Positions 4,522 through 52,412 of a stretch of DNA of 64,000 nt are shown here, piece by piece. Source of the stretch: Neodothiora populina (taxonomy: Eukaryota); the NCBI RefSeq assembly GCF_041146345.1, contig NW_027191413.1, forward strand, positions 2,914,001 to 2,978,000, read 5' to 3'. The notes under the pieces were generated by a model that saw only the letters and a list, made by a program, of their open reading frames with translations, ran no database searches and was not told the origin of the DNA. The position numbers and the translations under genes were made by a program. The first letter of the stretch is position 1; every line of letters begins with the position of its first letter.

Positions 4522-7500
4522 ATGATGGATGTACGTATTCTCTTGCATACTTCACTCTGTTCAATTTCACTTGCTTCTTTCATGTGCTGCATGCTGTAGA
4601 GACAAACACGGGAATGCTTCTTTGACTTGCATCTTCCCCAATTTCTGTTTCTGCATTCCAGCCAACCCCCCCTAAGATTGTCATCATCATCACAAGATCC
4701 AGCAATGGCAGACTCTCTCACTCTTGATCATCTCTCGCTGAGCCAGCAACAGATGAACAGCGACATGCTTGTCGACTCAGATTATGACGACAAGGCGCAA
4801 GACGTCACGATTATAACCCCAGATGACGAATCAATGGACGATCAAAGCCAGGATCCCCTGGCGGACGATTTTGAGGCAATGCGCGAACGATGGATGCCTT
4901 ATGACCCTGACCTGGAGGTAGAAGCCGAAGCAATTGACACATGGGATGTCAAGGACTGGCGAACATTGCCTAAGAGAACACATGGACCTACCTTCGAGTG
5001 TGGCAACGACCCTTGGAGGATCCTGTTTTTTCCTGCTGGCAACAACGCGTCCGACTCTGTCAGCTTCTATCTTGAGCATGGATATACCGAAGACATCAAA
5101 GCACCCGAGAACTGGTACTCCTGTGTCAGGTTTATGCTGGTGCTCTGGAATCCAAAGGATCCCTCAATCTACATACATCACGAGGCTAACCACCGGTTCA
5201 CTTTGGATGAGGGTGACTGGGGCTTCACTCGCTTTGCAGAAAAGAACAAAGTATTTGCTGTGCCATATGAGGATAAGGCCAGACCACTGGTTGAAAATGA
5301 CTGTGCAAAGGTGACAGCATACGTGAGAGTGCTCAAAGACCCTACCGGAGTGCTATGGCACAACTTTGTAAAGTGAGCTGACTCGTGCTGTCGTCCCCGA
5401 GTTGACTGAGCTGACATGGGTTGCGCAGCTACGATTCGAAGAAAGAAACTGGGATGGTCGGTCTCCGTAACCAGGGTGCGACCTGCTATCTCAACTCATT
5501 GCTGCAATCTTTGTATTTCACGAACTCATTCAGAAAGGTATGCGATTGCGCTGATCTCCGTTCCTGGGAACATGTCGAACTGACAATGCAGGCTGTCTAC
5601 CAAATACCAACGGAAAACGAGCAAGACGCTGCAAGCAGTAGCGCATGGGCTCTGCAACGCTTATTCTACAAACTCCAGACCGACCCCGTGGCTGTATCGA
5701 CTATGGAACTTACTCGATCTTTTGGCTGGGAATCTCGCCAAGTCTTTGAGCAGCAGGATGTGCAAGAGTTGTCGAGAATCTTAATGGATAAAATGGAGGA
5801 GAAGATGAAGGGCACAGCAGCGGAGAATGCTCTCGCCGACATGTTTGTGGGCAAAATGAAGACTTACATTCGATGCATCAACGTCGATTTCGAGTCTTCG
5901 CGCGTTGAAGACTTCTGGGACCTGCAACTCAATGTCAGCGGGTGCAAGAGTCTGAAAGACAGTCTGGAGAACTACATTGAGGTTGAGACCCTCGAAGGCG
6001 ACAACAAATATCAGGCTGAAGGATTCGGTCTTCAGGACGCCAAGAAGGGTGTCATTTTCGAGTCATTCCCTCAGGTTCTGCATCTACAGCTCAAACGCTT
6101 CGAATACGACTTTGTACGGGACATGATGGTCAAGGTCAATGATCGCTACGAGTTTCCGGAGACCTTTGATGCCTCTCCCTATCTCTCTGATACTGCTGAC
6201 AAGTCAGAACCATACATATACCACCTCCACGGTGTACTAGTCCACTCTGGCGATATGAATGCTGGTCACTACTATGCGTTCCTCAAGCCTTCCAAGGATA
6301 GTCCCTTCTACAAATTCGACGACGACCGAGTCACACGAGCGACCAAGAAAGAAGCCATGGACGAGAACTTTGGTGGCGAGTACAGCGTCAATGGTGTCAA
6401 TGGCATGAAGGTCCAGAACCCCTTCACTAGGCAATGGTCAACTAAGCGTTCCATGAGCGCATACATGTTGGTTTATATCAGAGAGAGCCGTCTGGATCAA
6501 ATCTTGCCACCGAGCGACTCGGTCCAACCTCCGGAGCACCTACCCAAGCGACTCAACGAAGAACGCGCCATCCAGGAAAAGCGACGGAAGGAGCGCGAGG
6601 AAGCACACCTCTACATGAATGTCCAGGTCGCCACAAAGGAACATTTCAAGAATTACCAGGGCTTCGACATTGTAGAGTGGAAGCCTGACGAAGAAAACGA
6701 CCCGGCTGCGCCCAAGACATTGAAATGCCGCAAAGCTGCGACCTTGACCGATTTCGTCAAACAGGCTGCCGAAGCCTTCTCAATTGAACCTGATATGATT
6801 CGTCCTTGGATTATGGTTAATCGTCAGAATGGCACAGTCCGTCCAGATCACCCTCTATTGATGCCAGGCATGACTCTTGAAGAGGCGAATCAGAAGTTCA
6901 GTACGCGACAAGCCCATTTTAGGATCTTCTTGGAGCAAGCCGAAAGCCGCGACGAAGCGGGTCTTCCCGTGTTCGAACCCAAGCAGCCCGCGGCCGCTCC
7001 TGCAGAGTCAGAGAAAGACAAGCCTATCATTATCTTCCTTAAATACTTTGACATGGAGAAGCAGGAGCTCAAGGGCGTGGGTCATACCTATATGTTCCAG
7101 TCTAACAAGGTCTCCGATCTTGCTCAGCCTATCCTGAAGAAGATGGGCTGGGGAACTGGTGTGCATTTGAAGCTCTACGAGGTATGTCATAAGATGGCCG
7201 CAACGTTCACATGTGATTTCACTGACTCTTTCAAGGAAATCAAGCACAACTATATCGATGTGATGAAGCCGGTGCAGTCCCTTCTCCAGTCTGAGCTACA
7301 GGATGGAGACATCGTCTGCTTCCAGACCATTCTTCCGGAAGCCGAGTAAGTCGATGACTTGTGATCATATTAGTATCAAAGCTCTCTAACAGCCCCACAG
7401 ACTCTCTGCTTTCAAAGAGAAGCATCCGTCCTTTTACACGGAACCTCCAGCGTTCTATGACTACCTCCTCAATCGCCAAGAAGTCACATTCATACCGAAA

Positions 7501-8572
7501 CCTGGTTCGTCACAAGCACTCAAGCTGGATGAGGACAAGGGGACCTTCCCGCTCTACTTGTCGAAGAAGGATAGCTACGATGCGTTTACCAGCCGTGTTG
7601 CAGCACATCTCTCACAGCTTAGTGGAACCCCGGTCGATCCTACCCATATCCGCTTCAGTACGATGAACGCCAACAACTGGAAGGCTCGGGCTGTTGTGAA
7701 GCGTGTACCGAATGCAACATTGAATAACATCCTTGCTGGCATGGCAGGTTATGGAAGCTATGGCTACAGTAGCCAGGCCAATGATGCACTATACTACGAA
7801 GTTATGGAGATGAGCTTGGCTGAGCTCGAGCAACGCAAGAACATCAGGATATCCTGGTTGACCGAAGGCATCCAGAAAGAGGTAAAATTTCCGTCCTTTG
7901 ACATCACTCATAGTCCGCTGCTAACATGTAATACAGGAAATCTTCGACATCCTTGCACCCAAAGCTGGTCGTCTTGGTGATGCTCTAGCCGCTTTCCAGC
8001 AGCGTGCACGCCTTCCAGATGAGGTCATGGAGCAGATCCGATTCTACGAGACTCATTCTAGCCGCATCTTCAAAAAGATCGACAGCACGCACCCCATTTC
8101 CGAGATCAACGAGTTCATGTTCATCTACGGCGAGCGAATACCCGAGGAAGAACTCAGCATGAATCCTGAGGCTGGTGACAAGCTTATCTCATGCTTCCAC
8201 TTTGACAAGGAGCCCAGCAAAGCCCACAATATTCCCTTCTTCTTTGTAATGAAGGAAGGTGAGATATTCAAGGAGACCAAGGAGCGTCTGAGCAAACGTA
8301 CAGGCATCAAGGGCAAGCAATTCGAGAAGATCAAGTTTGCGATCGTGAGAGGAGGTCAAAGCTACAGCAGACCTGTCTACGTCGAAGAAGGTGAGTCCGA
8401 ATGCGCTGCACTCGAATATCATGAGACTGGAAATTTATTGACCGACGCCGCAGTCCTCGGTGAAGACGACATTCTTTCGGACAAGCTTGGACCAGACGAC
8501 TTGCTGGGACTTGACCACGTCAATAAGACTAGAGCCTACGTTGGCAAGTACGAGAGCTTGAACATTCGCTGA
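4522..8572 (+). CDS. UBP15: Ubiquitin C-terminal hydrolase UBP15/USP7 ortholog (MATH + USP + UBL domains), multi-exon
   Basis: MATH domain (WRILFFPAGN...DWGFTRF), Cys box GLRNQGATCYLNSLLQ, QQDVQE, His box LVHSGDMNAGHYY and FDD. Inferred introns include 4531-4746/4752 (after the micro-exon ATGATGGAT), 5373-5428, 5538-5591, 7182-7235, ~7345-7400, ~7882-7937 and 8391-8453. The start codon is uncertain (alternatives near 4705 and 4753). Confidence 0.93.
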
Positions 8573-9297: not shown

Positions 9298-12200
9298 CTA
9301 TGGGATGTTGAAATCTGCCCCATCGAAGCCCTTGAGAAGATCTACATCCCCGAGGTCAAACCTGAAAGATGAGTCATAAAAGCATGAAGTGACATCAAAG
9401 CTCGGTTGATCTGGCCATGAGACGTTGTTCTGTTCGGTCAATGCATTCATGCCAGATACAAAGGCGCTATCGTGGCCCATTGGGCGCTTGTCGTTGCTGA
9501 GCGGCGTACGCTTAGCGTATGAGAATGATGGTGGTGGCATAAGGCCTGAATTAGTTGAAATACTTCCTCTCCACGTTGAGTCGTTGTCGACGGGGCATTC
9601 CAGTACAGAGGGTGCTGGCAAGTCTTTAGAGATCGCAGATTGAGAGGACCCAGACTGCGGTGTGAAAAGAAAAGGAGGTGAGTCATCGGACTTTGGCAAG
9701 CTCGAACTGGCAGAGTGATCATGACTTCTTCGAGGTGGCTGTACGCAGGACGATGCCGTGGACTCGACCCTCGCGGCGGCCTGGGGCTGGCATTGTTGCG
9801 TCGTCGATGCTCTAGGCAACCCGGTCATCTCATCTAGAACGGTATTTACAAGATATCGTAGTAAGCTCTGGCTCCAATCTACTATCTGACCTTCACTAGG
9901 ACCACCGTGCTCGATGATATAGGATCGAGCTAGGTCTACTGCAAGTCTTCCTCCCTGAGCATTGACGAAATTATTGAGCAAATCAAGGTGTACACATATC
10001 GAAGGATCAACATCTGATGCTTGTTAGTACTTGAGCCAGGCCTTGTTCCCGTAGACTTGAGCAGTCTTACATGGTGACGAGGGTCTCCCAGATTCGGGAA
10101 AGAGGATATCAAAGACCAGAAACCAATTTTCCTCGATACTGTTCTTCGCTGATCCCCTTATCTTGAGCCTGTGCCGTTTGTCAGGGCTAATGCCCTCCAC
10201 TTGCCTCCATGGCAATCGATCACAGATCCTTAGCTTTTCATGCTGAGTTAGATCCTCTTCGTTCTCGAAGTTCTGGTAACAACTCCGGCAGTGGAGAGGT
10301 TGGAGGTGACAGCGCCATAAGTGCTGCCTGATCCATACATGTTAGAGTTCTACGAACGAGTTCAGGTGCGTTGGAAAGGAGACTTACTTCACATAATTGA
10401 CCGCTGTCATCTTCAGAACACGGCAGTTCGCATACTTCTTCGGGTCGATCTTGTAGAATGGACAGGCGAGTCTCGGGTGATTCTCCTCTTGGTCGACCTT
10501 TCGAGGCGTCTTGCGGCGTCGAGGAGAGCCGTCTTCGTCCTCATCTTGGTTTCCATCATCTCTTTCTCTGGCAGGGCGATTTACTTTCCTCTTACGGTCT
10601 CCTAAAGAGCTGCTCGATGAGCCCACTATATTTGCACTTCCTGCGGATGTAGCACCAACGTCATGTCTTCCAGTACCTGTCCCTTCATCGCACTCAGGTG
10701 GGCTTACACCTTGCTGGGAATTTCGTGAACGTGCATACCACATAAGCTGTGTATCTGCACATGTCGAATGTGGTTGAAGTAGAACTGCTTCTGGGAAGGT
10801 GAAGGACATATGAGGCCTCCATGCATACTCTGACGATACATCAGCCGGGATCTCGGTCGTCGTGTAAAAAGCTACATATGCTTTGCGTAAATTGGGAACA
10901 ACACTTCTACAAAACTGCATCTCTGGTAGCTCATTTTGAAGCTCACAAAAAGTCTGAAACAACGCACTGAGACAATCTACTGGAAGACTATCCTCCTCGT
11001 CCTGAGAGCTGTCATCCCATACAGTCGTGACAGAATTCGCAGAATCAGGCGACATGCGAGGAGATGTGTGCTTGTTGACCTGCACATTCAATTTATCGGT
11101 CCGTTCGTAATCCGAATGATCTACACAGGCGGCGTCCCCTATGGGTGTTCTATCTCTAGTCGCCGATGGCTCGCTCAGACCTTGTTGTTGGTGGCATATT
11201 GTTGCATATTGCGCCGCACTGTCAATAGTATCAGGGTGCTTTTCGCCAAGTAATCTTCTCCGTAGCCGTAGTACTTCAAACATAAGCTCTCCAGCAAGTC
11301 TCGATAGACCCAGTTGATGTGATTCTGCTGCTACGATCGTCATACTTTTGATCTTGTCGAAGCATTCCACACCTAGTGTCTCTGGCTGTGATTGCATCAC
11401 CTTTTCCAAAATCGACTCGACTTCTTCCAATCGATCTTGATGGTAATATCTCGCGATAATAGCGATTAGACTGCCGATCGTTTCGGAATGTTGTTTTCCG
11501 AGTGCTTCCCGTTGCAGTTGCAGGACTCTTATGTGAAGCTCTCCAGCCTCTTTCCATCGACCTCGCTGGTGATACGTTGCTGCAAGATTCGACATGGCTT
11601 TGATAGTATTAGGGTGTTCTTTACCCCAGATGTCTATCGACGCCTCGAGTTGTTGTTCATACTCCTCAGGATCATTCGATTGATCTTGCATATGGTATTT
11701 CCCGAAACCGGAATTTGGAGAGCCATTGGTGGTAGCCTCTGAGCTGAGTCCTTGTCTCCACCCTTCTGACGCAGTTGCATATGCTCTTCCAGTAGCTTTT
11801 GGTTTCCGATATTTTCGACATTCAAGACGGTCATGAGGTATCGAGACACCACAATGAGGGCAGAATGGAACCGGCAGACCATTGCTAGGGTCGACAGCAG
11901 ATTTCTTGGCTGTTCTGAGGTCTTCTACTGATTTTGCGTGGTTTCCCTGCTGTTCTGTTTTTCCGTAACGATCAAGCATTTCACTTTGCCTGAAGGAGCG
12001 AGATAGCTCTGTGAAAGGCTCTTCGTATATAGCGGCAGACAAGGTTTGAAAGTATTCTGGTATTTGGTACGGACTTTGAGATGCCGGGTTTGCCCTTTCA
12101 AAACCGGGGTACTCAATTATGTTGATGTTACAAGACGACGAATCCATTTGACCTGAATAGCAAGTTGCCGCCGAACCGTACGCAGAGTCAACCTCGGTCT

Positions 12201-12732
12201 GTTGAGTCCTCTGTTCTAATACTTCCGACGCGTGAGCTATAGCTTCAGCTTCAGTCATGCTGTGGTAGACCGATAGATGCGCGATAAGTTGTTGGGGAGT
12301 TTCGTATGACTCTTTGCAGCCGGATGAGCATGTGCACGGATGTTCTGAATTGTTAAGTAGGATATGCAACGATCTAGTAGATGTGTCAGAAGGCGATGAC
12401 AGGTAGGGCCTGTTCTCGAAGGCAGCTTTCGCGCGGTGTGTTCCAGATTCCACCGAATAATGATGTTTGACAATGAGGTGCCCTCTCAAAGCTCTCTGTC
12501 GTTTATAAAATCGATTATTGCAACCCTCGACACAACACTGAATAGCCGATGAGGTCTGACGCGCTCCTTGAGATCGAGGATTGCTTCGCCGAATGTGCAC
12601 TACCTGTGGAGGAGCTTTAAGGCCATCGTCGGTAGCGTGTGATGTCGCCCAACGACCAACATTATCCACCTCATCACTCTCGATGCTTGGGTTCTTGAAG
12701 TATAAGATATCATCTTGTATCACACGCTGCAT
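9298..12732 (-). CDS. Multi-domain protein: N-terminal C2H2 zinc fingers, 42-aa TPR repeats, and a C-terminal fungal C2H2-type domain
   Basis: The 813-aa ORF joins via introns 10328-10387 and 10014-10070 to give ...LACPFYKIDPKKYANC..NYVKQHLWRCHLQPLHCRSCYQNF..LTQH..C...WFLVFDILFP..RPSSPY, then the 9298-9981 ORF. N-terminal fingers: CVEGCNNRF..LRGHLIVKH and CSSGCKESY..LIAHLSVYH. TPR: GKEHPNTIKAMSNLAATY. The first in-frame ATG is 12732; the true start is uncertain. Confidence 0.8.
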
Positions 12733-13286
12733 CTTGTAGAATAACTTATGGCATGAAATATCCCTTTGGAGAATCTCTGCGCAGTATGTGAAGGACGTCG
12801 AGTATACTGGGAGAGCGTGATCCAAAAAATATTACTGACTAGAATGATCACAAACGATCATCACACAAAGCGATGGCTCTGTTCTGCACAGAGAGCGGAG
12901 TGCACCACTGTGCGTTCATGAATGCGCCATCGTTTTGCTATGTTCTAGCAAATATGCGGCATGATGTAACAATGCATTCCATTGATGAAATGTCGGATGC
13001 GCAGCATGCTGACCAGGCTGAAAAAAACTGACGCGCCTGGACGAACTCACACTGGTGCAGACTCGAATTACCACTGTAGATTGTGTTCTCAATTCTGTGC
13101 AGATAGCTATATCTGCTTCGAGGTGTGGTCACTTCTGAAATCGATAATGGCGATTATTCAGGAGAATGTTTATAACCCTCCCTGTATGGCATTGAGGTAT
13201 ATTTTGCCCTAGCCAGCGGAGTACGTAGACAATCCATCAGATTTTGACCGATTGAACACGGTATCATCGCATCATATTGATCAGAA

Positions 13287-26392: not shown

Positions 26393-27834
26393 TCATGCAC
26401 CCACAAGACCGGTATCACTATGATCTTCCCAGATGAGAATCTCTCCCTCGCTGTCGCCTTCTTGATTGGCGACTGAAGTGAGAGTTAAGCTAGTCGCTTT
26501 GACGGTCTTAGGAGTGGAAGCATTCTCCATGATAGGCACATTTTCTTCGCTTTCATCTCTGGATCCAATTACGAGATCGTCTTCGTCTCCTGTAGCAGGG
26601 GAGGCGGTGCTGACGGTGTCATTGCCTGCAATCACCTCTGCGACTGAGATTTTGTCATTCTTCGCTGGGCTTCCAGGCACCACGAAGAAGTCGTCTTTGC
26701 CGACGCCACTGCCGAAGAAGTCCTCCGTCTCCAGGTCTGACAGCGGTGATCGCTCACCGTCATCCATTTCGTCCGGTTTAATGATCTTCCGTCTGGTGAC
26801 AGCGTGCTTGCCAGAACGAGTTACGGATGAAGTTTCACTCAATGCTCTACTGCCTCCCGAGGAAATTGAAGGGGATTCGTAGTCAGGAGGTGCGACATTT
26901 TCTTTTCCTATGTCGTTGCGCTTGAGCTTCGCACTCTCGTCATCCGAGGAGAGATCCAAAGTCAAAGTGCTGTGTTCCATCAAGTTCGCAGCCTCCTCCT
27001 CTGGAGAATCTTCGTAGATGTCGAAGAACCAATCCTGGGGCATGGACTCCTCGATCGTCTTGACTGCTGGTTTGGGCGCACTAGGCTTACTCAAAGAGCC
27101 AGCGAGAGCAGCGTCCAGACTGAAGGGAAGTGCAGAAGACGAAGATGAGGCACGAGCAATGGACTTGGGTTCAGTGCGAGAGCAAGGCACAGACACGCGT
27201 CGACCTCTAGAGTCACGCTTTGCCTTGGGAGACCTGCCTGCAGGTGCAGTCAAGGGCACTCGTGGCGACGACATGTTTGCGCGCAGACGTTGACTTGGCG
27301 TCTGTCGGCGAGACGGAGCTGAAGATGGAGGTGGCATTGATGTCGATGAGTTCGACTTAAATGAGAAATTAGGTGTCGAGATTAAACTGAATGCTGGCGA
27401 TAATGATGATGATGCTGCTTTCAGAGGATTGCCGTCGTTGGTTTTGCTCCGCTTGCTGGACGATAGAAGGGACGAAGGGTCAATGTTTTCCGCGTCAAAT
27501 TCATCTTCCATATCAGAAGGCGAAACCCTTCGTTTAGTGGGTGGATTGAAAGACGATATTTCGGCAGGCACAGAAACACTAGGCTTGTTGTCTGAACAGA
27601 GCGGGCTTCGCGGAAGTCCTATAGCAGGTTCCCAATTAGTATGTTTACTTGTTTACTTATCAAGTCACGCTTCGTTATCGAGGGTGGAACCTAGTCCACC
27701 ATTCATATGACCAACGCATAGCACAGCAACTCACCATTTTGACGATTTTTGCTGCTTTGCAGATGTTGCAGTCTTGGGCTCGCAAGGGCAGAAAATGGCT
27801 GCCTTGGGACTGCCATAGCGGCGACTGTAGTCAT
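26393..27834 (-). CDS. ACM1: Probable Acm1-like APC/C-Cdh1 pseudosubstrate inhibitor
   Basis: Exon 1 (27735-27834, MTTVAAMAVPRQPFSALASPRLQHLQSSKNRQN) and intron 27619-27734 join the 392-aa ORF. The protein is disordered and carries ordered motifs FDIYED (ABBA), GKENVAP (KEN box) and RSPLSDL (D-box), plus many S/T-P sites. The CDS is solid; the orthology is inferred from motifs. Confidence 0.7.
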
Positions 27835-27944: not shown

Positions 27945-29979
27945 ACTGCTTTCCAGCTGTAACCTCACTGCTGTGCACCTTGCAATTGGTGAACTGCACA
28001 ATGACTAAAGTAATGATTCGAATATAGCAGTATATGGCAATGAATGATATGGTTGGGAGGGAATGAGCGGCGCTTGGGAAGAGGGTGGGTCAAAGGGGGG
28101 ATATTAGGCGGCGAACACACGAGTCTCAATCACGTACGCCTCGCGCTCGAGGACGTGAAGCGTGAAGCGTGATGGGTGAAGCGTGAAAGCCCGAGAGCGC
28201 GACTTGCGGGCGCCAAGCACTCTTTGGAGTATCTGCACGTCCCCTTCCTAACAACGTCTGAGCAATTTACTGGCTCTCAGCTCTCGAGAACGCGCCGACG
28301 GAGCTGCAGCTCACCCGTCGAAACTTGACTTTGAATGCAATTCACGCCTCGATTCTCTTATTTGCTCCTGGCAGAGACAAAGCTGTGTCAGCCTGTCACA
28401 GAATTCTTTCCTGCCAATTCATCAGCACTAGAGTTCTAATCTCGTTCAACACAGCATTGGTCTGCTTCATCTTAGATCGTGATTAATTTCGCATTCCCTG
28501 TGTAAAAGTAGTATGCGGCTCCGACTGACAACCCGCTTCGACCCCTCGCTGCGCGTAATTTTAGAGTTAGGTACTTTGACCCCTTTAGGAATGACCATCT
28601 CCAAGCCTCAGTTTGCTCCTGCACCAACAGTGGGTTTTTATACTCGAGAGTCATCCCGTGTCGTTGGATGAAACGTACTTTGTCCAGGGTACCCTTACAT
28701 ATCGATCCATGGATCCTCTGTTAAAGTACTGTACTTGAACAAGTGATCAACCCGATCGATCTACTTGTGAAAAGTACGCGTAGCTATCAATGCCTCAGGC
28801 CGTATTCGTATAGACTACCCCACGGGGCCGAATACGCAGTGTAATCTCGAAGGTAGATAGGGTAGACAAGACAAGGAAAAGTGGACCACCCGCAGGGCTC
28901 TATTGATAATTGTGTCTCAGTATAGTATACCGGGGAGAAGTGGGTCTGTATTGATTTCTCTTGGAGGTCTGGATCATGGATCAGCCGTGATCTGAACTCA
29001 CCATTTCTGTGCGTATTGGAGGTACGGTCGATCGAGTGCTCATCTTCACCTTGATGCCACTTGCTGCTCATGGACCGTGTGATGCAGTGAAATCGTCAAT
29101 GCCAGTGCGTAAGAAAACCAGATCACGCATAGCATGTGCTACTGATCTCCAATTGCTGGCAGTAGCTCGATGCACTGCGCATCAATTTTCGTGACGTGCT
29201 TGAAGGTGATGAAACTTCCGTGCTTTTTGTACTTGCATGCTAAACTGATCTCTGTACATGACATGCAACACATACCTACCTTATGCACGTACCTGGATAC
29301 TTGTTGCGCTATCGAGGTTCGCGAATGATGCAGTAATATATAGTATGTGTGCTACATTATCTGTTACAGCCTGATATACCATTGAGATTGGCGTGTATGC
29401 TTGTTGAGCAAGTGAGTGTACACCCGTTTTGAGGTATGCGCCGAACACTACCTTAGTGATTCGAGGGCGACCCTGGCCATCACAGCAGGATCCAACAGAA
29501 TCATGAATAATTCCAAGAGAGCTCGGGCTATGTGCTCTTTTACATGACTTCTATGTTTCTCCATATACAGAAGTATGATTCAACATATGATCGTATCGTC
29601 TACAGGTCCGACGACTTGGAAATTTGGAGGTAGTGCGCTGTTACTCGCTTCTAGTTAGGTACTTCTGCTGGAAACGCTGCAGCGGTACACAGCACGAGCA
29701 TTGTGTGAACGTCAAGTCGCGCTTCCGTGTAGAAATGAAGACTCAGTTTTCGCAAAGCATCACCACACTACCTTATGAATCATGTACGCATGATTACGAA
29801 ACATGTAATTGAGTATCAACAGAGGGACCGTACAACGAGGAGAAGCGAAAGAGAAAGAAATCATTATTCATCTGAAGCACCGACTTTTATCCGACGCCGA
29901 CCAATCTACCTTACGCCAAACCACAACCATCTACATAATTCATAAAGCCTTCGAATCGCATCCCCGATAAACACGCAAT

Positions 29980-31863
29980 CTACACTGCCTTGCTGATACT
30001 GGCCATGGTCTTCTTGAAGAAGCCGCGCTGCTCCTCAACATCATAATCAGGGTGCTTGAGCGAGTCGTCGCCCTCTCTGCCCTCGACGACACTGGTGTCG
30101 TGCTCGATGACATCGTGAACCTCAAACCAGGATCCAGTGGGGCTGAGTGCAGGTACAGGCCAAAGCGTGCATAGGATCCAGTACATGCCTGCTGACACGA
30201 TGAAACCAGCAAAAAAGTTGATGTTATAGATGTAGGTTGCACCAATGGGCACGGTAACACCGCAAGCGCCAGCGAAACCGACAATGTTGATCAGAACACC
30301 GCTGATGTAAGCCACATAGCCACGCCATTGCACACCACCAGTGCTATAGTACGGACCGCGCTTGTCGGCGCTGTAGAGGTTGTTGATTTCGTAGTAACCC
30401 TTGCGTACAAAGTAGTAATCCGCAATCATGGGTCCAGCAATGGACGACAAGAAGACCGAATATGCGCTGAGGTAGGTAGTGAAGTTACTTGCATTGGTAA
30501 GGAACTGCCATGGGCAGATGCACAGACCAATGAGAGCACAAATGTATCCACCACGACGGATGTTAATGTAGCGGGGGAGCAAGGCTGTCATGTCGGTTCC
30601 AGCACTAATCGAGTTGGCAGCAATGTTGGTTCCAAGTTGAGCAACAACGAATGCGGCGGCGATGAAGAATACTCCCGCGCGGGTGCCGGAACTGCCAACA
30701 CCAGATTCTCCATCAGTGATAAACTCCTTGAGAAGGTCCAGAGGGTTCCAGGTAGCACCGAGCTTAGGATAAATGACAGCCGAGGATGATCCAACAATGA
30801 TACCGATGAACGAAGTCAGACCAAAGCCCATTGGGATAGTGATGAACTGGGGAAGGAAAGCATCGCTAGGCTTGGAGGCGAATCTCGAGAAGTCAGGGTC
30901 ATTGACCTACAAAAGTTAGTGAGTGTCAGATCAAAACGTGCCATTCTGAGGATTAACTTACAACAAGAGTAGCAAAGTTGCTAACAGCACTCATGATTCC
31001 CGCAATCACTCCCCATGCCAATTTGGATCCAGAAGCTGTCGAACCTTGGTGGATGACCGGCCCAACACCACCAGCCTTCACGATGGCCCAGATGAACAAA
31101 GCAATACCAGCAGTGGGTGCAACGATGGCCTTGAACGTGAACAGATGACGAATCTTGTGGACAGGAAACCATATGAAAGGCAATGAGCCGAGCCAGAAGA
31201 GAAGGAACGAGATGAAGTAGTTGACGGTTCCACCCATGGCGATCGACTTGACCAATGATGGACGGGTTCCGAAAGAGGGCCAAATCGATGCAATCATGAG
31301 AAATACACATTCACCTCCAATCCATCCTTGAACACCATACCAGATACAAGCCATTACCACTCGGTTGAGAACGGGCCTAAAAGCAGATTAGACGATGAAC
31401 AACCAAGAACCACCTGTCACACTAGGTACATACCATAAGGAACCCCAGATACCAAAGGAGGCTCTGTTGACAACGGGGAAACTGATGTGATACGTCGCAC
31501 CGATGCGACCAGTGAGACAGACGAAGAAAGCCGAGATAGTATAGCCCACCCAGACACAGATCCAGGCCTGCCACCAAGACAGGCCAACGCTAGGATCCAA
31601 AGAAGACGCCGCTATCATCCAGGTATTAATATTGAAACTGTCCGCGATCCAAAAGCCGACGAAGTTGAACGCCTTCCACTGTCGTCGCTCTGGCTCGACC
31701 GGCTTCAAGTCATGGTTGGTGAGAAAGAGCTCCTTGCTGCTGAGACCAGGTTCGGACTCGACTTCCTGAAATGGAGCGTCAGCCACCTAGACTTGGATGC
31801 TGATACCGGGGATAACCTTACCAGCTTCTCCGCGACGGACTTGAGGCCCCGAAACCTCGACAT
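29980..31863 (-). CDS. NCS1 (Fur-type) uracil/uridine/allantoin permease
   Basis: [72 protein letters not shown] and YINIRRG. There are three introns, and exon 1 ([14 protein letters not shown]) starts at 31863. Confidence 0.93.
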
Positions 31864-32745
31864 GATGCAAGTCGATCCTTAGCGCGAGCACGACACTTGA
31901 CAGGAAGTGACCAGAAGAAAGACTTCCAGATGTGGGGTAGGAGTATGCTCCGTGAACTTAGAAGTGATGCAATATATAAGGTATGTATATAGGGATATGA
32001 GGTGGATATATGCTTCAAATGATCATATGTGGAAGCAAGAAAGTGTCAGACACTAATCGATGCAAAAAACAACACCTACTGAAGGGGATCATGAGCATCT
32101 TATATTTCATGGTGTAAGGCGATGGGTCTACGATAGCTTACGAAAAGACCATATCTATGATTTTTTTTCGAGTGATGTTACCTCAAAACTTTAGATTAGA
32201 GGATGAAGACCCTGTTGACTCGATGTGATCGAGTAAAAGGCACAAATACGCCCCGCGCCTTTCCCCGTAGTTCGCGAGGGTGGGCGGGCCGTCGGAACTG
32301 CTATCCAAATCCATACTAGCGCATAGGCGTGCCCAGGATGCCCTACACAATCTCAATGCGGACGAGGAAAAGCATCCTTTCTCGCCCAGACTTGGCGTGA
32401 GTACATGGCAATACTATTCGCATGCCCTTATCTGAGGAAAAGAAACAAAGATGGCGAGATGCACGAATTGGATGCACCTTGAGTGTCGCGTGCCTCGAAA
32501 TCCAAGACGCATGTGAATAACTCGGCACGTCGCCGAGATACGGTACCGTACCAGAGGTAGCATTGGATAAGGTACTGTATGGCTGGCAGCGTGCAGCTTT
32601 ACCTACCTTAGGTCTCTTGCAGTTCGGTAGACATCTCGGGGCGTCGGCGACGGCGTCAGAATGCTGCTTTGGCCGCCGAGTGGCGTCAGTGCCGCAGATC
32701 GAGTCCACGGAGATATGCTGATACGATGCGAAAGGTACAGTATGG

Positions 32746-32780
32746 ATGGCATGGCACGGCATGGCATAGCATGGCATGTC
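32746..32780. repeat. Imperfect (ATGGC)7 pentanucleotide repeat
   Basis: atggc atggc acggc atggc atagc atggc atgtc lies just downstream of the second permease stop. Confidence 0.75.
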
Positions 32781-32818
32781 GCATGATTTGACTTTACATC
32801 AAATTTATACGCGCCTAG

Positions 32819-34784
32819 CTAGCACTTGCTCTCTACGTCCACAACAAAATCAACATGTCGATCTTGTTCTGGACCAAAGTCTGAATCGTCACCGAGATCC
32901 CTACCTTCCAGCATTCGCACGTGATCTTGCAAGACGAAAGGACCGCTCGCTTTCTGCTTCTTTGCCGGGAATGCCGTGTGGAGACCCCAGTGCACAAGCA
33001 TGGCGACACAAAAGCCGTAGAAGTAACTGATCTGGTATAAATGGTCCCATCCATTGGCAGAAGATGCAGTGCCCTTTATAGCCCTGATGAAGCCAGCTAT
33101 GATTGGGGCTTGTGTCAGTTGTACAGCCTCTTTGCAGCGCTCAGCAGGTGCCTATCGGGAACTTACGTAGCAATGGCCAGAGTCCCATCGCCCAGGCCGT
33201 GAATCCTCTTAAATTGAAGCCACTGATATACCAGTATGCACTCTCGGAATTGCCAGTGTAGAGATCGCCAACGCAATACTTCCCTTGTCTGACAAGGAAA
33301 TAGTCACTTACGACTATACCAGTCATTGGACTAAGAAACACACTCCACCCGCTGAGCACAGTTATGAAGGTGCTCGGCTTGGTCACATAGTTCCAAGGGC
33401 AGATAGCCATACTGACGACGCTGAGGAGGTAACCGCCTCGACGGATATTGATCCACTTGGGACACAGCGCCGCCAGATCCATACCTGAGGATATACAATT
33501 CAGCATCTGACAAAGAGCGAGCTGAGAGGCTAGGAATCCGAGTGCTGCGAAGAATGTGCCCGCTCTTGCTGCCGCCGATAGCGAATGCTGCTGAATCGTG
33601 AGAAGAAGCTCGAACGGATTCCATACATAAGCGCCGTAGATTGTCTCCGTGGCACTGGTGATGAGGATCCCGCAGACGGAAGTTGTCACTATAAGAACTG
33701 GAGCTGCAATCGCCTGGCCGAATAGGGCAGCATTAGGAGTTTTCGCATATCGCGTCCAGTCGGATTGCCCGAGGCAGCCCGAGGCTTGACTGCCGACGAT
33801 GGATTGCAGGCCGTAAACAGCGTTCCAGGCAAGGAGAGAGCCTTGTTTTGTACTTGGGGTGTAGAAAAGGGTACCCGGTCCTCCCGCTGTACCAATCGCC
33901 CAACCAAGCAAGCCAAACATGGAACAAGTTATCATGATGAACGTGATCTGATATCAATCAGTACACACCGTCACGGCAGCGTTACACGAAAGCATATACT
34001 CTGAAGGGCATCTGCAAGTTCTCGGGAGGAATCATCAAGGTAGGCAAGAATATTACGGCAAAGATGAAAAAGCATATGAGACTTGCTGTGTCAACGTTGG
34101 TGGATTCGGGCAAAGTATTCTTGAGATCTCGGAAGGAATGCCCGATGATGGCATTCAAGATGATCTTGACCGATTGTCCGCCCTACAAGGTCAATCAGTC
34201 AGTGATCTTGTACGGTAAGCCATCTGTTGTATCTAACCCACCCAATACATCTGGATGCCGAGCCAGATAATCGATGTCATGATGCGGTTAAGGACTGGCC
34301 AGAAACCACCGCGCATACCCCAGGAGCTGTCTTTGTGAGTACAAGTGAACAGGGGCGAAGCGCTATCCAGACAGACCTACGAGCGCGAGAGTACTGTGAA
34401 GCCCAGATACAAGCGACTGCCGGGCCATCCAGCAAGCACAGCGATCAACGCAGAGATCAACGCAACGCCGACGACACAACCAATGGCTTGTGGGACACTG
34501 AGTCCCAGAGAGAGCAGCGTCGAGCCAGCGGTCCATGCCGTCGTGTTGACGCCAGAGATGACCCAGTATCCTGCATATCCTTGCCACGTCCAGGTCCGTC
34601 GATTTTCTGGTATCGGGATGAGATCACGATTGCACCACTTCGGGGACGAATTAGCTACACACAATGTACCATTTCGGTCTCTGATACTCACAAATGTGTT
34701 GTGATAGCCAGCATCTTCGTCAATTGGACACTCGAGACGCTTCGCCCAATACTCGACCTTAGGCTTGGTCTTCTCGGTAAGCAT
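32819..34784 (-). CDS. Second NCS1-family nucleobase/nucleoside permease
   Basis: WCNRDLIPIPENRRTWTWQGYAGYW, LGFTVLSRSSWGMRG, GQSDWTRYA, WNPFELL and WINIRRGGY. Multi-exon; the last exon (PGFIRAIKG...ESKC) ends at TAG 32819. Confidence 0.9.
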
Positions 34785-35482
34785 TGCAACGACTGCCAGA
34801 TGTGAAGCTACTCGTGAGTACTACGTGGACAAACATGTCAGGTATATAGCATGCTTCAACCAAGATGGCTTTGGATCTCCCAGATAACATTGACTGCCTA
34901 TCTCTGGCGGGAATATCTGTGTCGATCTTGCCTGACTATGCCTATCGTGCAACGTGATGTGCGAATCATCCTGCAATCCTGCAGGCGGCTTGCCTTGTAA
35001 GCTTATCAGGACGACTACATGGTCCTTGGACTCTGGCACATTACGAGGCACACACGAAGTGTGTGTTCAGGACTTGTGAGAGTCGATCAGACATCGCTAT
35101 ACACCTATCACGAATTCGCTGCTTAAAAGTAGATCATAGTAACCCACTGCATGGCTTGTAGATTTCGAATCTCACTCTTCTGGACGTGTCGTTATGCAGA
35201 TCTCGAAGTACACAGTAGATATAAACTCGGCCGAGCTCTGGTGAGCACAAAAGGCAAAGTAGACTTGGGGTAGGAGCGAAAGTATATTCGTTCCTCATTG
35301 GGCTTCCCACCCCGCAGGCTAGCCCCGCGTCTGGTGGTACGCCTATCTCCCTTACTGTATCTTACCTAGGTACTGTGCGCACCAAGTGCGACTCACAGTG
35401 GTTTCTGACGGGCTATAAGAAATCAATGTCATCGTTTAGAATCCGAATGTAACCCCATCTTACAATATCTTCTCGCTATAGC

Positions 35483-36682
35483 ATGATTGCCAAAAACGAA
35501 CAAGAATCGTCCTCTATACCCGTAGTTGATTTCTCCGAATGGCAAGACGATGCACCTGCCGAAGTGCGAGGGAAGATCGCCTCTGATCTTATCAAGGCAT
35601 GCCGTGAAGTAGGCTTCGTGTATATCATCAATCATGGCGTGGGGAAAGCACTGCTCGATGAAGCATTCGCCATGTCTAAGAAACTATTCGACCTCAGTCA
35701 CGAGCAGAAAATGCTCGCTCCACATCCTCCCAATCCAGAATGGCATCGAGGCTATTCGTCTCCAGGGCTGGAGAAGGTGTCTCAGGTCTATGGCATGGAT
35801 GCGGACCCTCAGACTGTAGGCGAGCAGCTGAGGGAAGTCAAAGACTGCAAAGTAAGACTACAATAGGGGACAGTAGGTAGTGTTCCATATTCAACCACTA
35901 ATATCAATATCAGGAGAGCTATGAAGTTGGCAGCGAGGGAAACAAGGAACAGCCGCCCATCTGGCTGCCGGAAGATGTGCTTCCTGGCTTCCGCGACTTC
36001 GAGACATCCTTCTACTGGAAGTGCAATGAGGTGGCCCGGAAGTTATTGGCGGCTATGGCAATAGGACTCGGACTAAACGACGCGAACTTCATATTGAAAT
36101 ACCACTCCGGTCATAACAATCAACTCCGCCTCCTGCACTACCCACCGGTTCCTGCGATAGAACTAGAAAGCAACAAATCGGCGAGGATGCCGGCGCACAC
36201 GGACTGGGGTAGCATCACCATGCTGTTCCAGGACAAGTGTGGCGGATTACAGGTCGAAGACCCCCACAAAAGAGGGCGCTTTATTGATGCGACACCGATG
36301 CAAGGCGCGTTGATCATGAATGTGGGGGATCTGTTGATGAGATGGAGCAATGGTGAGCACTACACAGTCAATGTAGATGCGTTAGGACATGTCATACTGA
36401 CAAGGCCATGCAGACCAGCTGAAGTCGACGATGCACCGCGTGACGCTGCCACCACTATCGGATCGCTTCGAAGGCGAACAGAGGCTGACGCGGGCGAGAT
36501 ATTCGATTCCATATTTTGTCAGTCCCGATGAGAACTCAGTAGTCGAGTGCCTACCAGCGTGTACCAGTGCGGCAGAACCGGTCAAGTATGAAGCGACCAA
36601 TTGGGGAGAATATCGTAGGATGAGGGCGGCGCTGCAGTACAGAAGGAGCGACGAGGCGGCGCCTAGTGCAATCACAATTTGA
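35483..36682 (+). CDS. 2OG-Fe(II) dioxygenase (IPNS/DIOX family, thymine-7-hydroxylase-like)
   Basis: IPVVDF..GFVYIINHG..HRGYS.PG.EKVSQ..KESYE..NQLRLLHYPP..HTDWGSITMLFQD..RWSND.LKSTMHRV..RYSIPYF, giving the HxD...H triad and RxS. Introns ~35852-35913 and ~36353-36412. Confidence 0.92.
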
Positions 36683-37132
36683 CGCGCTCACGACCACCGG
36701 TCAGCGGTCATCACACATGCCTGCCCTGAGTATCAACACCGCATCTCATTATCACACATCAAACCTGATCTCATTCGTTTGATGTCGAAGATGAACAATA
36801 AGCGACCCGCGGGCTTGGCGCGCCAAGGCGGACATCAAGGTGGACTCGAGGAAGGCGCAGATGATGACACATGCAATGCTTTCTAAACGCGGGAAGGTGT
36901 GGGCGAGGTCTACTTTTGCCTCGAGGTAATTACTTGCCCAAACATGTTCACATAAAGTGCAATATTATCAAAAGGATACCGACTCTTCACTGCTTATACG
37001 CCAACGTGCTGTCTATCTCGCCGTGTCATCTGACATAAATAGGCTTGCTGTCTCGCAAAAGGTAAAAGACGACAGGCACATCACATCGTTGGTATTGTCT
37101 TATATTTACCAAGAGCGTGCATCCCTTGCTTG

Positions 37133-40100
37133 ATGCCCCTCTATCTCGCTAGGCAACTACGAGTAGCTCATTCTCATGCTATCGGGCTTGTTCCAAAACA
37201 TCAGCACGTGGACACTGCTCTTCTCTCCGCAAGGGTAAGGAAGTTTTCACAAGCCCGTTCATTTGAATCTTTCCTCTGCTGCCAAAAGCATACCGCCTCA
37301 TTCGCCCCCGGTGGTCAATCTCTGCTTCCCTCTCGACTCCCACGTTTCTTCTCCTCTTCAAGTGCTAGATATCTACGGCAAAGCAGCGGCCTACTTTCTG
37401 ACGACATGGTTGGAAGTGCAATGCAGATGCCCGTCGTCAACAACTCGATGGCTCCGGTCAACCGGCTGGCAGACCACCTGGAGAAGCCTGATCTAGACAC
37501 GAGAACATACAGAGTGGTGCAGCTGCCGAACAAGCTCGAGGCTCTTCTGATCCACGATGCCGACACGGACAAGGCTAGCGCAGCCATGGACGTCAACGTG
37601 GGCAGCTTCAGCGACGAGGAGGACATGCCGGGCATCGCCCACGCTGTAGAGCATTTGCTGTTTATGGGAACCGAAAAGGTATGTTGATAATGATACGCGG
37701 ATGATTTCGGGCGAAACTGACGTCAGACCTCGTAGTTTCCTGGCGAGAACGACTACAACCAATACCTCCAGTCGTACGGAGGCTACTCCAACGCTTACAC
37801 GGCAGCTTGTGACACCAACTACTATTTCGAACTGTCTGCCACTTCTGCTCCGAGCAACAGCCAAGAATCTCTCGACAGCGCCAAAAAGGGGCCTCTCCAC
37901 GGCGCCCTGGATCTCTTCGCACAATTCTTCATCAAGCCGCTCTTTCTCGAGGACACGCTGGATCGTGAGTTGCGCGCAGTGGATTCAGAGAACAAGAAGA
38001 ACCTGCAGTCCGACACATGGAGGCTGCACCAGCTGAACAAGAGCTTGTCAAACAAGGCCCATCCTTTCCACAAATTCTCTACTGGAAACTACAAGGTGTT
38101 ACACGATGAGCCGCTCGAGAGAGGAGTCAAGATCAGGGACAAGTTCATTGAATTCTACAAGAAGCACTACTCGGCGAACCGCATGAAGTTGGTGGTGCTC
38201 GGGAGGGAGGGGCTAGACGAGCTCGAGGCTTGGGTCACCGAACTCTTCTCCGACGTGCCCAACTTTGACCTGCCCAAGTTGCGATGGGACGACGTTCCTG
38301 CGTTGTCCGAGAAGGAACTTGGAATGCAGATTTTCGTGAAGCCCGTCATGGACATGCGCATGCTTGACGTCCACTTTGACTTCATCGACGAGGACGAGCT
38401 ATGGGAGTCGCAGCCCTCAAAGTATATCAGCCATCTGATCGGCCACGAGGGCCCTGGCAGTATTCTTGCATACATCAAGGCCAAGGGCTGGGCGAATGGT
38501 CTCGGTGCTGGGCCGATGAGTCTTTGCCCTGGAACTGCTCACTTTTCCATATCTATTCGCTTGACCGAGGATGGTCTGAAAAATTACCAGGAGGTGGTCA
38601 AGACTGTCTTCCAATACATTGCTATGATCAAAGAGCAACCGCCTCAAGAGTGGATTGTCACAGAGATGGCTCAGCTCGCCGAAGTCGACTTCAAGTTCAA
38701 GCAAAAGATCCCAGCCAGCAGGACCACCAGCTCTTACAGCGGTGTCATGCAAAAGCCATACCCGCGTGAGAAGCTCTTGAGTGCTGGAAGCAAGATCTGG
38801 AAGTTCGATTCGGATGCCATCAAAAGAGGCCTTGATTGCCTGCGTGCCGACAACTTCCGCTTACAGGTCGTCTCCCAGGAGTTTCCGGGCGACTGGGATC
38901 AAAAGGAGCAGTGGTATGGCACCGAGTACAAGTACGAGCCGATTCCTTCCGACTTCCTCAAGGAGCTCGAAGTTGCGAGCAAAGCGTCTGCCGCTCAGAG
39001 GCCGGCCGAGCTGCATCTGCCCCACAAGAACGAGTTTGTCCCCACTCATCTGGACGTTGAGAAGAAAGAAGTCGAGACCCCTGCCTTCAGCCCCAAGCTC
39101 ATCCGCAATGATGCTCTTGTCAGAACATGGTGGAAGAAGGACGACCAATTCTGGGCTCCTAAAGCCAACGTCAAAGTCTGCCTTCGTTCCGCTTTGGTCA
39201 ATGTCTCGGCGTTCAATGCTGTCATGACCCAACTCTTCACCGCCTTGGTGGAAGATAGCTTGACCGAGTACAGCTACGATGCCGAGCTTGCTGGTGTCAA
39301 CTATGACTTTTCTAACCATGCGCAAGGCCTTGACATTGCCGTTTCTGGGTACAATGACAAGATGTCTGTGCTTCTCGAAAAAGTGTTGCTTGCCGTTCGC
39401 GACTTGGACATCAAGGACGATCGCTTCAATATCGTCAAAGACCGTCTCCTCCGCGGCTGGCGCAACTTTGACTTCACCCAGCCTTACCAGCAGATTGGCA
39501 CCTATTCCCGCTGGCTCACGTCCGAAAAAGGATTCGTCATTCAACAACTTCTTGAAGAGCTTCCGGCGGTGACTGCGGATGACGTCCGCGCCTTCTTCCC
39601 ACAGGTGTTGAAACAGATGCACATCGAGATCCTCGCCCACGGCAACATGTGGCGTGAGGATGCGTTGAAGACGACCGATCTGGTGGAATCTATCATGAGG
39701 CCCAAGACACTACCAGCTGCGCAATGGCCTATTCGACGCTCGCTTGTGCTTCCTGGTGGCAGTAATTATGTCTACAAGAAGACACTTGCGGACCCTCAGA
39801 ACGTCAACCACTGCATCGATTATCAGCTGTACACCGGCTTGTCCAGTGATCGCGTCACGCGTGCCAAGCTGCTTCTCTTTGCGCACATGATTGACGAGCC
39901 TTGCTTCGACACTTTGCGCTCCAAGGAACAACTAGGCTACGTCGTGCAGTCTGGAGCTACCATGCTAGCAACTGTCTCAGGCTTCAGAATCATCATCCAG
40001 AGCGAACGTCATCCTGACTATTTGACGAAGCGCATTGAGGTCTTCCTTCGCAAGTTCGGCAAGCAGCTTGAGGAGATGAGCGAGACGGATTTCGAGAAGA

Positions 40101-40914
40101 ACAAGGAAGCCGTGGTTGGCAAACGCGAGGAAAAACTCAAGAATCTGAACCAGGAAAGCGGCAGGTTCTGGCACCATATCACGTCCGAGGCGTTCGATTT
40201 CGAACTTGGTAAGTCACCATTTTTATCCCCAGTCGGAATGCTATTTTCGCCCTGCTTCCAATGCGCTAACCAGTTGGCTTCACAGTGAAACGTGACGTCG
40301 AACACCTCCGGACTCTGACCAAGCCTGACATCGTGTCATTCTTCACCCAGTACATCTCTCCCGCATCGAAAGACACCCGAGCAAATCTCGCGGTGCATCT
40401 ACTTGCCCAGCATTCGGTCGTCGACATTGCCGCACAGTCAGCTGCAGATGCTTCGCAGCAGACAGCCGAGCTAGCGAATGCTCTGGCACAAGTCCTTGGC
40501 CAGATGGGTTTTGCTGGCGTCGACAAGGATGCACTGGGCAAGAAGCTTGACGGTGTGGATGTCAGTGGAGGAGACACACAAGCTATCCTTGAGGCTGCGT
40601 CAAGCTATGTTTCTGCAAATCCTTCGCTAGGTGCCGATGCCGCTCAGTTGGAAGGTCTGAAGGTGCAGGGTGCGCAACTCGTCGACTCCATCCTGCCATC
40701 CCTTGGTATCGTCCCAAAGAAGCGTGGTCTTGTCGGCGGCGAGCAGGACGACAGCATCACGAGCAGCGAGAACAGCGCTCTGCAGGGCAAGTCGACAGAA
40801 GTCGTCGAGATCACCGATGCCAGAGACTTCAAGGCTGGTGTACCGCTCAGCGAGGGACTCAAGCCTGTGCGGGAGATTCACGAATTCGAAGACTTCGGCG
40901 GTGCCAAGTTGTAG
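37133..40914 (+). CDS. STE23: Insulin-degrading-enzyme/Ste23 M16A metalloprotease
   Basis: Inverted zinc motif HAVEHLLFMGT, AVDSENKKN, SHLIGHEGPGS and LRSKEQLGY, with C-terminal AKL. Introns ~37679-37735 and ~40209-40285. The start may be 37133, 37406 or 37420. Confidence 0.95.
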
Positions 40915-51185: not shown

Positions 51186-51964
51186 TCAACCGAGGAACTT
51201 CAACTCGCCATTATCATTCGTAATCTTCTCATCAAGATGTATCGTCGTGCGATTCCACCCCCCACTCCCCCCTCTGCCCAGCTCAGCCTCCAGCACTCTC
51301 CCGTTATCCACCAGCCTGACATTCCTGGCGGACGCGCCAAAGTGTCCGCCTCTGGCCCAGGCGAACTCGCCGTTCATGTTGGCCAAGACGCTGTTCAGCG
51401 AGATGGACGAGAGCTTCCGAGAGCCGTCCATGGCAGGACACTGCGCTATCAGGTCATAGTCGCCGTCTAACGTGATGCTAGCGCAGCTCGCGGAGAAATT
51501 GCCTGCGAAGGGTGCTCCGGCCGGGCGTTGTCGGTCCCTTTTGTTTTTGTGGTCCGAGTCGGAGGATGACGAGCTACTGCTGCTGCTGCTGCTACTGCTG
51601 CTACTGCTGCTTCGGCTGTGTCGACCTTCCTTTTTCGGCTTCTTGTTCTTTTTGTCCTCTTTGAAGTGGTCTTCCAGTTTGGATCCGGCGAATGCCCCGC
51701 CCAAAGCCCCGATGACGCCGTGGTTGACTTTGTGCCCGCCGTAGGCTCCCAGTGCGCCTCCTGCGAGAGCGCCGGCCACGCCTTTGTCTTCTTCGTATGC
51801 GGGAGGGGGGCCGCCGTGCTGGTAGCCTGGTCGAAGACCAGACGAGTAGGACTCGTGGTACGTCGACTGGGTGTAAGTGTTGTTGTTGTTGTGTTGCTGT
51901 GGAGGAGGATGAGGATGAGGCGAGTGTGCGCCGCCAGCTTCTATCCTGGACTCCTGGTAGGGTG

Positions 51965-51996
<32 letters not shown>

Positions 51997-52412
51997 GGAG
52001 GATATGCATGTTGCTGTTGTTGCTGTTCTGGATATCCGCCATACTGGTGCTCTTGCTGCTGATATCCCTGACGCTGGTAGTCTGGCGATTGATATTCCTG
52101 ATGCTGATAGGATTGTTGTTGTTGTTCATGTTGAGGCGCAGTGTTGTATTGCCCATATGCCTGTGAAGGCCCACTGCTCGAGTACTGCGAGTACTGATAA
52201 CCCGATGGTTGTGATCCAGAGTGCTGTGACTCGGCATAACTGGCTGGCGGACCTTGACTCGGTGGTGGTGGAGTGTGGTGATAGTCTTGCTGATATGTTT
52301 GTTGATACGTCTGTTGATAGCGCTGCTGGTAGCCTGGCTGGCCCTGATATGATCCTTGCGGCGGCGGCGCATTGCCGCTGCCTGAGTCGTTGTAATAGTC
52401 GTCTGCAGACAT
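51186..52412 (-). CDS. Cyanovirin-N homology (CVNH) protein with a Q/Y-rich N-terminus and glycine zipper
   Basis: C-terminal GNFSASC..L.A.C..DG....S.ISLNSVLAN.NGEF..GG.FGASARNVRL..L.AEL...W....I.LDEKITNDNGEL, plus the zipper GALAGGALGAYGG..GALGGAFAG. ATG at 52412. Confidence 0.88.
51966..51996. repeat. (CAG)10 polyglutamine microsatellite in the CVNH gene
   Basis: A ctg run on the + strand encodes QQQQQQQQQQ. Confidence 0.9.

Follow-up and report, generated by a model that had tools for sequence, protein, structure and literature searches.

Acm1 of Saccharomyces cerevisiae, a pseudosubstrate inhibitor of APC/C-Cdh1, is the closest described system to the locus analysed here. Its inhibitory region comprises residues 59-128 (PDB 4BH6) and contains an A-motif at residues 61-70 (with F61, Y64, E65 and E66) followed by a helix to residue 80, a KEN box (98KENxxP103, with 102SPAK) and the D-box DB3, which runs from R119 to L125 and is followed by S and V (He 2013, PMC3690534). 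In the same paper an NEN element was dispensable for inhibition by Acm1, and K333 of Cdh1 was a key Acm1-specificity residue. Residues C-terminal of the Acm1 D-box are reported in a citing passage to inhibit via Apc10 (PMC12401543). Three other systems use related elements. BubR1/Mad3 combines ABBA and KEN motifs at constrained spacing according to a pseudosubstrate logic (Di Fiore 2016, PMC5179498). Mes1 of S. pombe, a small protein, inhibits one coactivator by means of degrons and serves as a substrate of another. Cyclin A and Clb5 carry an ABBA motif plus a KEN box and/or D-box in their N-terminal degron regions and are substrates, not inhibitors. Further APC/C background was drawn from passages of PMC4824431, PMC4862756, PMC4114781, PMC5717348, PMC4195823, PMC6534075 and PMC9289945.

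The passages on phylogenetic range limit the Acm1 ABBA motif to the Saccharomycetales (PMC5179498) and state that A. nidulans has no obvious homolog of Emi1, Acm1 or Rca1 (PMC6078057). In that species deletion of pucA is lethal unless cdhA is also deleted, from which the authors concluded that there is no other sufficient brake on CdhA and that PucA alone suffices to inactivate it (PMC6078057). No report of an Acm1 homolog in filamentous fungi was present in the literature searched, which consisted mostly of titles and the starts of abstracts. The alignments of the main Acm1 papers (Enquist-Newman 2008, Burton 2011 and Qin 2019), or orthology databases, may list such homologs.

The locus lies in a window of 64,000 nucleotides, the whole stretch of Neodothiora populina DNA that was analysed, and is one minus-strand gene of two exons spanning positions 27834-26393 (Table 1). 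The spliced product of 441 amino acids is identical, letter for letter, to database protein P0003, labelled as a hypothetical protein of Neodothiora populina by NCBI and as 'Thymidylate kinase' by UniRef. The gene is single-copy; when the core was searched against its own genome, this locus was the sole match. The original prediction described a disordered, S/P-rich protein with an N-terminal RQPF and three motif islands. Its composition (Ser 17.7%, Pro 9.3%), the lack of any Pfam family at E<=1 and a fold predicted from a 115-sequence alignment (disordered, mean pLDDT 52.7, pTM 0.23) all bear this out. Two islands of the predicted fold, at approximately 231-250 and 321-350, are confident. RQPF at residue 11 (27804), WFFDIYED at residue 230 (27031; F232 at 27025), GKENVAP at residue 271 (26908) and RSPLSDL at residue 323 (26752) were all located on the minus strand where they had been placed. 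The further claim of CDK-type sites needs correction: of the 14 S/T-P sites, S350 (SPAK) alone has the strict form S/T-P-x-K/R, and it lies in a poorly conserved region.

Table 1. Features of the gene and its 441-residue product, with positions in the window.
Feature	Position	Strand	Residues	Remarks
Exon 1	27735..27834	-	1-33 + one base	ATG at 27834; spliced product is P0003
Intron, 116 nt	27619..27734	-		GT..AG; GTGAGT...CTAAT...TAG
Exon 2	26393..27618	-	34-441	ends at TGA stop
RQPFxxL, N-terminal	27784..27804	-	11-17	D-box-like, F for L at position 4; candidate counterpart of Acm1 DB1
Basic clusters KR and KRxK	27443..27535	-	62-63 and 89-92	flank DxENxDP; putatively NLS-like
DxENxDP	27476..27496	-	75-81	KEN-like without Lys; ENxDP in 93/120, 98/132 and 109/110 listed homologues
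AGRSPxxKR	27215..27241	-	160-168	proline-directed CDK-type site S163; S163 94%, P164 93%
RRxSxP	27185..27202	-	173-178	candidate 14-3-3 or basophilic kinase site, lineage-limited
PFSxDAALxG	27098..27127	-	198-207	conserved, predicted short helix (model, 201-209); mean top-residue frequency 0.77
ABBA / A-motif FDIYED	27008..27025	-	232-237	consensus Fx[ILV][FHY]x[DE]
Predicted helix	26969..27004	-	239-250	directly after A-motif; model DSSP H239-250, block pLDDT 85-88
Acidic linker block LDLSSDD	26939..26959	-	254-260	conserved; L254 98%, D255 99%, S257 97%, D259 96%
KEN box KENVAP	26888..26905	-	272-277	KENxxP type; K, E, N and P+3 each 100% (114 sequences)
D-box RSPLSDL	26732..26752	-	323-329	in order, corresponds to Acm1 DB3
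D-box tail, family xxxDFYxEG	26678..26731	-	330-347	conserved; candidate D-box extension
ILIWED, C-terminal	26423..26440	-	427-432	putative second ABBA-like motif, W at position 4

Homologues were collected with three queries. A search with the core region picked out 159 of 1353 candidate proteins, and the best 120 of these include many named Dothideomycetes. Among clusters at 50% identity, 623 matched a 37-sequence profile (E<=0.001); the best 150 were taken, 132 of which were new. A 14-sequence profile built from two distant clades gave 401 matches, and the best 120 name Sordariomycetes (Fusarium, Colletotrichum, Podospora, Metarhizium, Xylariales) together with Onygenales (Trichophyton, Microsporum, Malbranchea). 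Aspergillus, Penicillium, Neurospora and budding yeasts are missing from the names among the matches listed (best 120 of 159 and best 120 of 401); with biased queries, and only the best matches listed, this does not show that these groups lack the family. The 362 homologues used below (sets of 120, 132 and 110, given in that order) were taken from the matches listed, include fragments and the query itself, and are related rather than independent sequences.

The ordered cassette was defined as an ABBA motif, 20-60 residues, KENxxP, 5-130 residues and RxxLxx[LMIV]. The three islands of the original prediction are conserved in the homologues listed: the cassette occurs in 119/120, 126/132 and 109/110 (354/362). 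It was present in 0 of 7240 shuffled sequences and in 1 of 893 ORFs of the window and fetched loci, and the chance expectation from local composition is approximately 0.015 per 5 million residues.

Residue frequencies were taken from a 114-sequence alignment selected by length alone (>=300 aa), with no motif as criterion. F232, K272, E273, N274, P277 and L326 are each at 100% and R323 is at 99%. The remaining ABBA positions are I (97%), H (75%) or Y (23%), E (87%) and D (95%). Position 4 is Y in Neodothiora populina and H in 75% of the wider family, and the consensus permits both; among the 362 listed homologues the strict [FY] form accounts for 93, 33 and 2 sequences of the three sets and the H form for 26, 95 and 108. 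Position 5 is E in 112/120, 113/132 and 105/110. Within the D-box, P (82%) or A (17%) at position 3 is accompanied by G at position 5 (72%), D/E at position 6 (79%) and L/M at position 7 (96%), and the form Rx[PAS]Lx[DE][LMIV] is found in 106/120, 101/132 and 108/110 listed homologues. The D-box tail is present in 113/120, 101/132 and 105/110 (319/362), and its block has a pLDDT of 79-87 in the predicted model. The A-motif lies 34 residues from the KEN box, within a family range of 30-41 (modes 33, 34 and 37); the KEN box lies 48 residues from the D-box, within a family range of 22-72. A second alignment, A3, comprised 115 sequences (6 from the core-search set and 109 of the 132 new clusters); since fragments and the majority of non-matching rows had been excluded from it, part of its invariance reflects this selection. 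Its mean top-residue frequency is 0.82 for the ABBA block and 0.87 for the KEN block, compared with 0.17-0.18 for the linkers, and the degron cassette (0.82-0.87), rather than the extra blocks, is the most conserved part of the protein. The region after the D-box tail (residues 348-426) has a mean conservation of 0.17.

Like Acm1, the protein is disordered, without a folded domain, and carries A-motif, helix, KENxxP and D-box in the identical order. The distance from A-motif to KEN box is 34 here and 31 in Acm1 (E66 to K98), and a helix follows the A-motif in both, predicted in the case of the present protein. ABBA position 5 is E, as at Acm1 E65. The D-box has a small residue at position 3, an acidic residue at position 6 and an aliphatic residue at position 7, as in Acm1, and family positions 3, 5, 6 and 7 follow preferences explained by the Acm1-Cdh1 structure (PMC3690534). 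The Acm1 strings given in the original prediction agree with that source at the residues it names, namely F61, Y64, E65, E66, K98-E-N and 102SPAK and from R119 to L125 with the following S and V. The N-terminal D-box-like element is a candidate counterpart of Acm1 DB1, which serves Cdc20-dependent destruction; it reads RxPF here and RxxL in Acm1. By analogy, the D-box tail may be the equivalent of the Apc10/Doc1-acting extension of Acm1.

The two proteins differ in length (209 residues in Acm1, 441 here) and in the distance from KEN box to D-box (18 in Acm1, 48 here). The SP within the Acm1 KEN box (S102-P) is absent here, and KENx[ST]P, a CDK site overlapping the KEN box, occurs in 0/362 listed homologues. 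The NEN upstream of the KEN box is likewise absent, with EN at 4-9 residues before KEN in only 8/362. The 14-3-3 site pT161 after the Acm1 D-box has no conserved counterpart, and the present protein has extra conserved blocks. Six PDB searches, by phmmer (with exon 2, the core and a short-linker member) and by hmmsearch (with three profiles), left Acm1 unmatched at E<=10; the matches returned were all unrelated (E 0.29-8). The target was a 70-residue Acm1 fragment, expected as 4BH6 from He 2013 and unconfirmed in the set searched, and no intermediate yeast sequences were included. Since the target is short and intermediates are lacking, these searches do not refute orthology with Acm1. Fold searches of the monomer model by Foldseek and VIA-align found no match, as expected for a disordered chain. 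The original claim of an Acm1 ortholog is upheld as to an Acm1-like layout, which the sequence supports, and not as to kinship, as no search reached yeast Acm1. That the 441-residue protein would work like Acm1 is, from its anatomy, well supported by sequence; that it belongs to the Acm1 family is unproven, and two accessory features were not found. Common descent with yeast Acm1 is slightly more likely than not.

The genome encodes both Cdc20 (contig C2) and Cdh1 (contig C14; P0124, L012:1474-2481). Yeast Cdh1 residues were mapped onto P0124 and their conservation was counted in 72 homologues. The residues of the D-box pocket are retained by 71-72 of these. Of the five A-motif specificity residues, two are kept, I311 (= I326, 71/72) and P374 (= P389, 59/72), and three are changed in Neodothiora populina (L325 to H, K333 to T and I344 to T); the K333 position is K in 4 and R in 6 of the 72 homologues. 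The Cdc20 of the same genome has S, E, E, D and A at the five A-motif-contacting positions, with S and A at the I311 and P374 equivalents. Because Cdh1 keeps these two equivalents and Cdc20 does not, Cdh1 is modestly favoured and, on residue comparison, appears the likelier partner. The missing K333 speaks against an exact copy of the yeast specificity. Compared with the Cdh1 proteins of yeast and human, P0124 also has an insertion of approximately 48 residues within its WD40 domain (residues 481-528). Contig C5 (L013:664-2103) carries a third, divergent coactivator gene of the Cdc20 family, which ends in IR and is probably Ama1-like.

Several conserved elements lie outside the cassette. RxP[FL] occurs within the first 25 residues in 63/120, 53/132 and 109/110 listed homologues (225/362, many entries lacking exon 1), and RxxL in 4/120, 6/132 and 1/110 (11/362, many entries being N-terminally incomplete). 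The basic clusters are conserved at K62 (89%), R63 (88%), K89 (93%) and K92 (82%) in the 114-sequence alignment. GRSP, with its conserved proline-directed site S163, is found in 101/120, 86/132 and 110/110 listed homologues. The full RRxSxP context is present in 92/120 of the first set but in 9/132 and 4/110 of the wider sets. [ILVF]WE[SD] occurs near the C-terminus in 79/120, 75/132 and 108/110. A further family block, PFxRxDPPxF, in which R181, P184 and P185 are each more than 90% conserved across the family, is degenerate in Neodothiora populina (VPCSRTEPKS, window 27170-27200, residues 177-187).

Identities suggested by name or by motif content were compared with the family. The only likeness to thymidylate kinase is the name shared by many of the records listed. 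The P-loop GxxxxGK[ST] occurs in 0/362 listed homologues and PF02223 in 0/115 members, the protein is disordered, and a genuine thymidylate kinase gene was found on contig C16 (E 4.6e-25). With no P-loop here and the real enzyme elsewhere, the label is wrong; its presence on many UniRef and some NCBI family records among the matches listed is a propagated misannotation. BubR1/Mad3 was rejected: PF08311 matched none of 115 members, and the genome's Bub1/Mad3 gene is a different one, on contig C3. Like BubR1/Mad3, the present protein has a second ABBA-like motif and a second KEN-like one, but the TPR (Mad3_BUB1_I) domain and kinase are absent and the cassette reads ABBA-KEN-D-box rather than ABBA-KEN-ABBA. 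Securin was rejected on PF04856 (0/115 members at E<=0.1); a genome search with PF04856 gave no match and its control was likewise undetected. Mes1 differs in that it is described as meiosis-specific, and no ABBA-helix element is mentioned for it in the passages that describe it. The cyclin A and Clb5 degron region has a weak echo in 6/115 members (PF16500), but the cyclin box is absent here.

That the protein is a ligand of some APC/C coactivator is very probable. The reading we consider probable is that, in filamentous ascomycetes, it inhibits APC/C-Cdh1 as a pseudosubstrate in the manner of Acm1. Three conserved docking signals in the order of Acm1 suggest a similar job in moulds. The chain would wind around one coactivator WD40 propeller. 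The groove between blades 2 and 3 would take the ABBA motif, with the helix running along blade 3; the KEN box would sit on the top face, and the groove between blades 1 and 7 would receive the D-box, such that all three degron sites would be blocked simultaneously. The aromatic tail after the D-box might hinder the Apc10 co-receptor, and B-type cyclins could build up between G1/S and mitosis. Localisation and timed destruction may be set by the N-terminal half, with its RQPF box, basic clusters, DxENxDP and S163 site, much as Acm1 uses DB1 and its CDK sites. The lethality of pucA deletion in A. nidulans, with no Aspergillus name among the matches listed, counts against an inhibitor. It is rather unlikely that the protein is more than an Acm1 copy, namely a multi-site APC/C inhibitor of filamentous ascomycetes. 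RQPFxxL, DxENxDP and the C-terminal IxWE[SD] would then form a second, degenerate set of coactivator motifs beside two further conserved docking blocks, engaging two coactivators, or a coactivator together with the APC/C core or cyclin-CDK, and NLS shuttling under CDK control would tune the APC/C per nucleus in multinucleate hyphae.

A multivalent APC/C substrate is an unlikely alternative. Its degrons would time early destruction as in cyclin A and Clb5, and its real job would reside in other conserved blocks such as RxDPPxF, PFSIDAALxGT and IWES. ABBA speeds destruction of Clb5, and cyclin A2, which is a true substrate, combines ABBA, KEN and D-boxes; the extra non-degron blocks, and the weak matches of 6/115 members to PF16500, the cyclin-A APC/C-binding region (best E 0.018), are consistent with such a role. 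However, no folded catalytic or cyclin domain is present, the degron cassette is more conserved than the extra blocks, and the tight A-to-KEN spacing with its helix resembles an inhibitor. Securin, a special case of the substrate reading, appears as the tenth-ranked ESM Atlas cluster (0.77, a lead only) below top rows of Ascomycota clusters, but PF04856 speaks against it.

An inhibitor of Cdc20, of meiotic Ama1 or of several coactivators, possibly arisen by convergence rather than by descent from Acm1, is quite improbable. The loss of K333 from Cdh1 is in keeping with it, Cdc20 is also bound by ABBA motifs, the genome offers three coactivator-like receptors, and Mes1 provides a precedent in inhibiting one coactivator while serving as substrate of another. 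Against this, the Cdc20 surface is more acidic and lacks both hydrophobic contacts kept by Cdh1, and the motif flanks are themselves strongly acidic. Coincidental resemblance to degrons, with an unrelated role that might include that of the thymidylate kinase label, is very improbable. The label is widespread among the UniRef and, in part, NCBI names listed, and the literature searched yielded no experimental work on a member of the family, but the enzyme's P-loop and Pfam family are missing, its genuine gene is elsewhere, and the ordered cassette is expected only about 0.015 times per proteome-sized text.

The inhibitory mechanism proposed for the Acm1-like reading is already known in kind. 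If that reading is true, at least three classes of filamentous ascomycetes would share pseudosubstrate control of APC/C-Cdh1 with the budding yeasts, whether through old descent or through convergence. The question of how Cdh1 is restrained in multinucleate hyphae gains a defined gene and defined residues, and natural variation across hundreds of clusters could define what makes a degron array an inhibitor. A widely spread 'thymidylate kinase' annotation is also corrected.

The surroundings of the gene were inspected for context. The window shows no enrichment of ACGCG sites (90 observed, 103.6 expected), and short TCACGC repeat units are present at 28150-28195, approximately 330 bases upstream of the start codon. 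The neighbours, a purine/uracil permease and an Asp f 4-like gene, provide no functional context for the 441-residue protein. Two minus-strand exon clusters of purine/uracil/allantoin permease type, described as convergent-region, occupy 29980-34820 (PF02133 at 29980-30831 and a similar-looking gene at 33141-34820), adjoined by a 2OG-Fe(II) oxygenase at 35453-36531. An 815-residue ORF at 10384-12831 has a short TPR_10/TPR_12 stretch between zinc-finger-like regions. A 500-residue ORF at 1494-2996 has no Pfam match and contains the string DFGDIDF, which we take to be suggestive of a nucleotidyltransferase. Ordinary genes of the window include a USP7/Ubp15-like deubiquitinase (4600-8572), an M16 peptidase (37043-40914), a CVNH-domain protein (51186-52535) and a class II-type hydrophobin (60355-60750). 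Family member P0070 and a fungal-type Cdh1, P0140, are both filed under Quercus suber and probably represent fungal contamination of the plant assembly.
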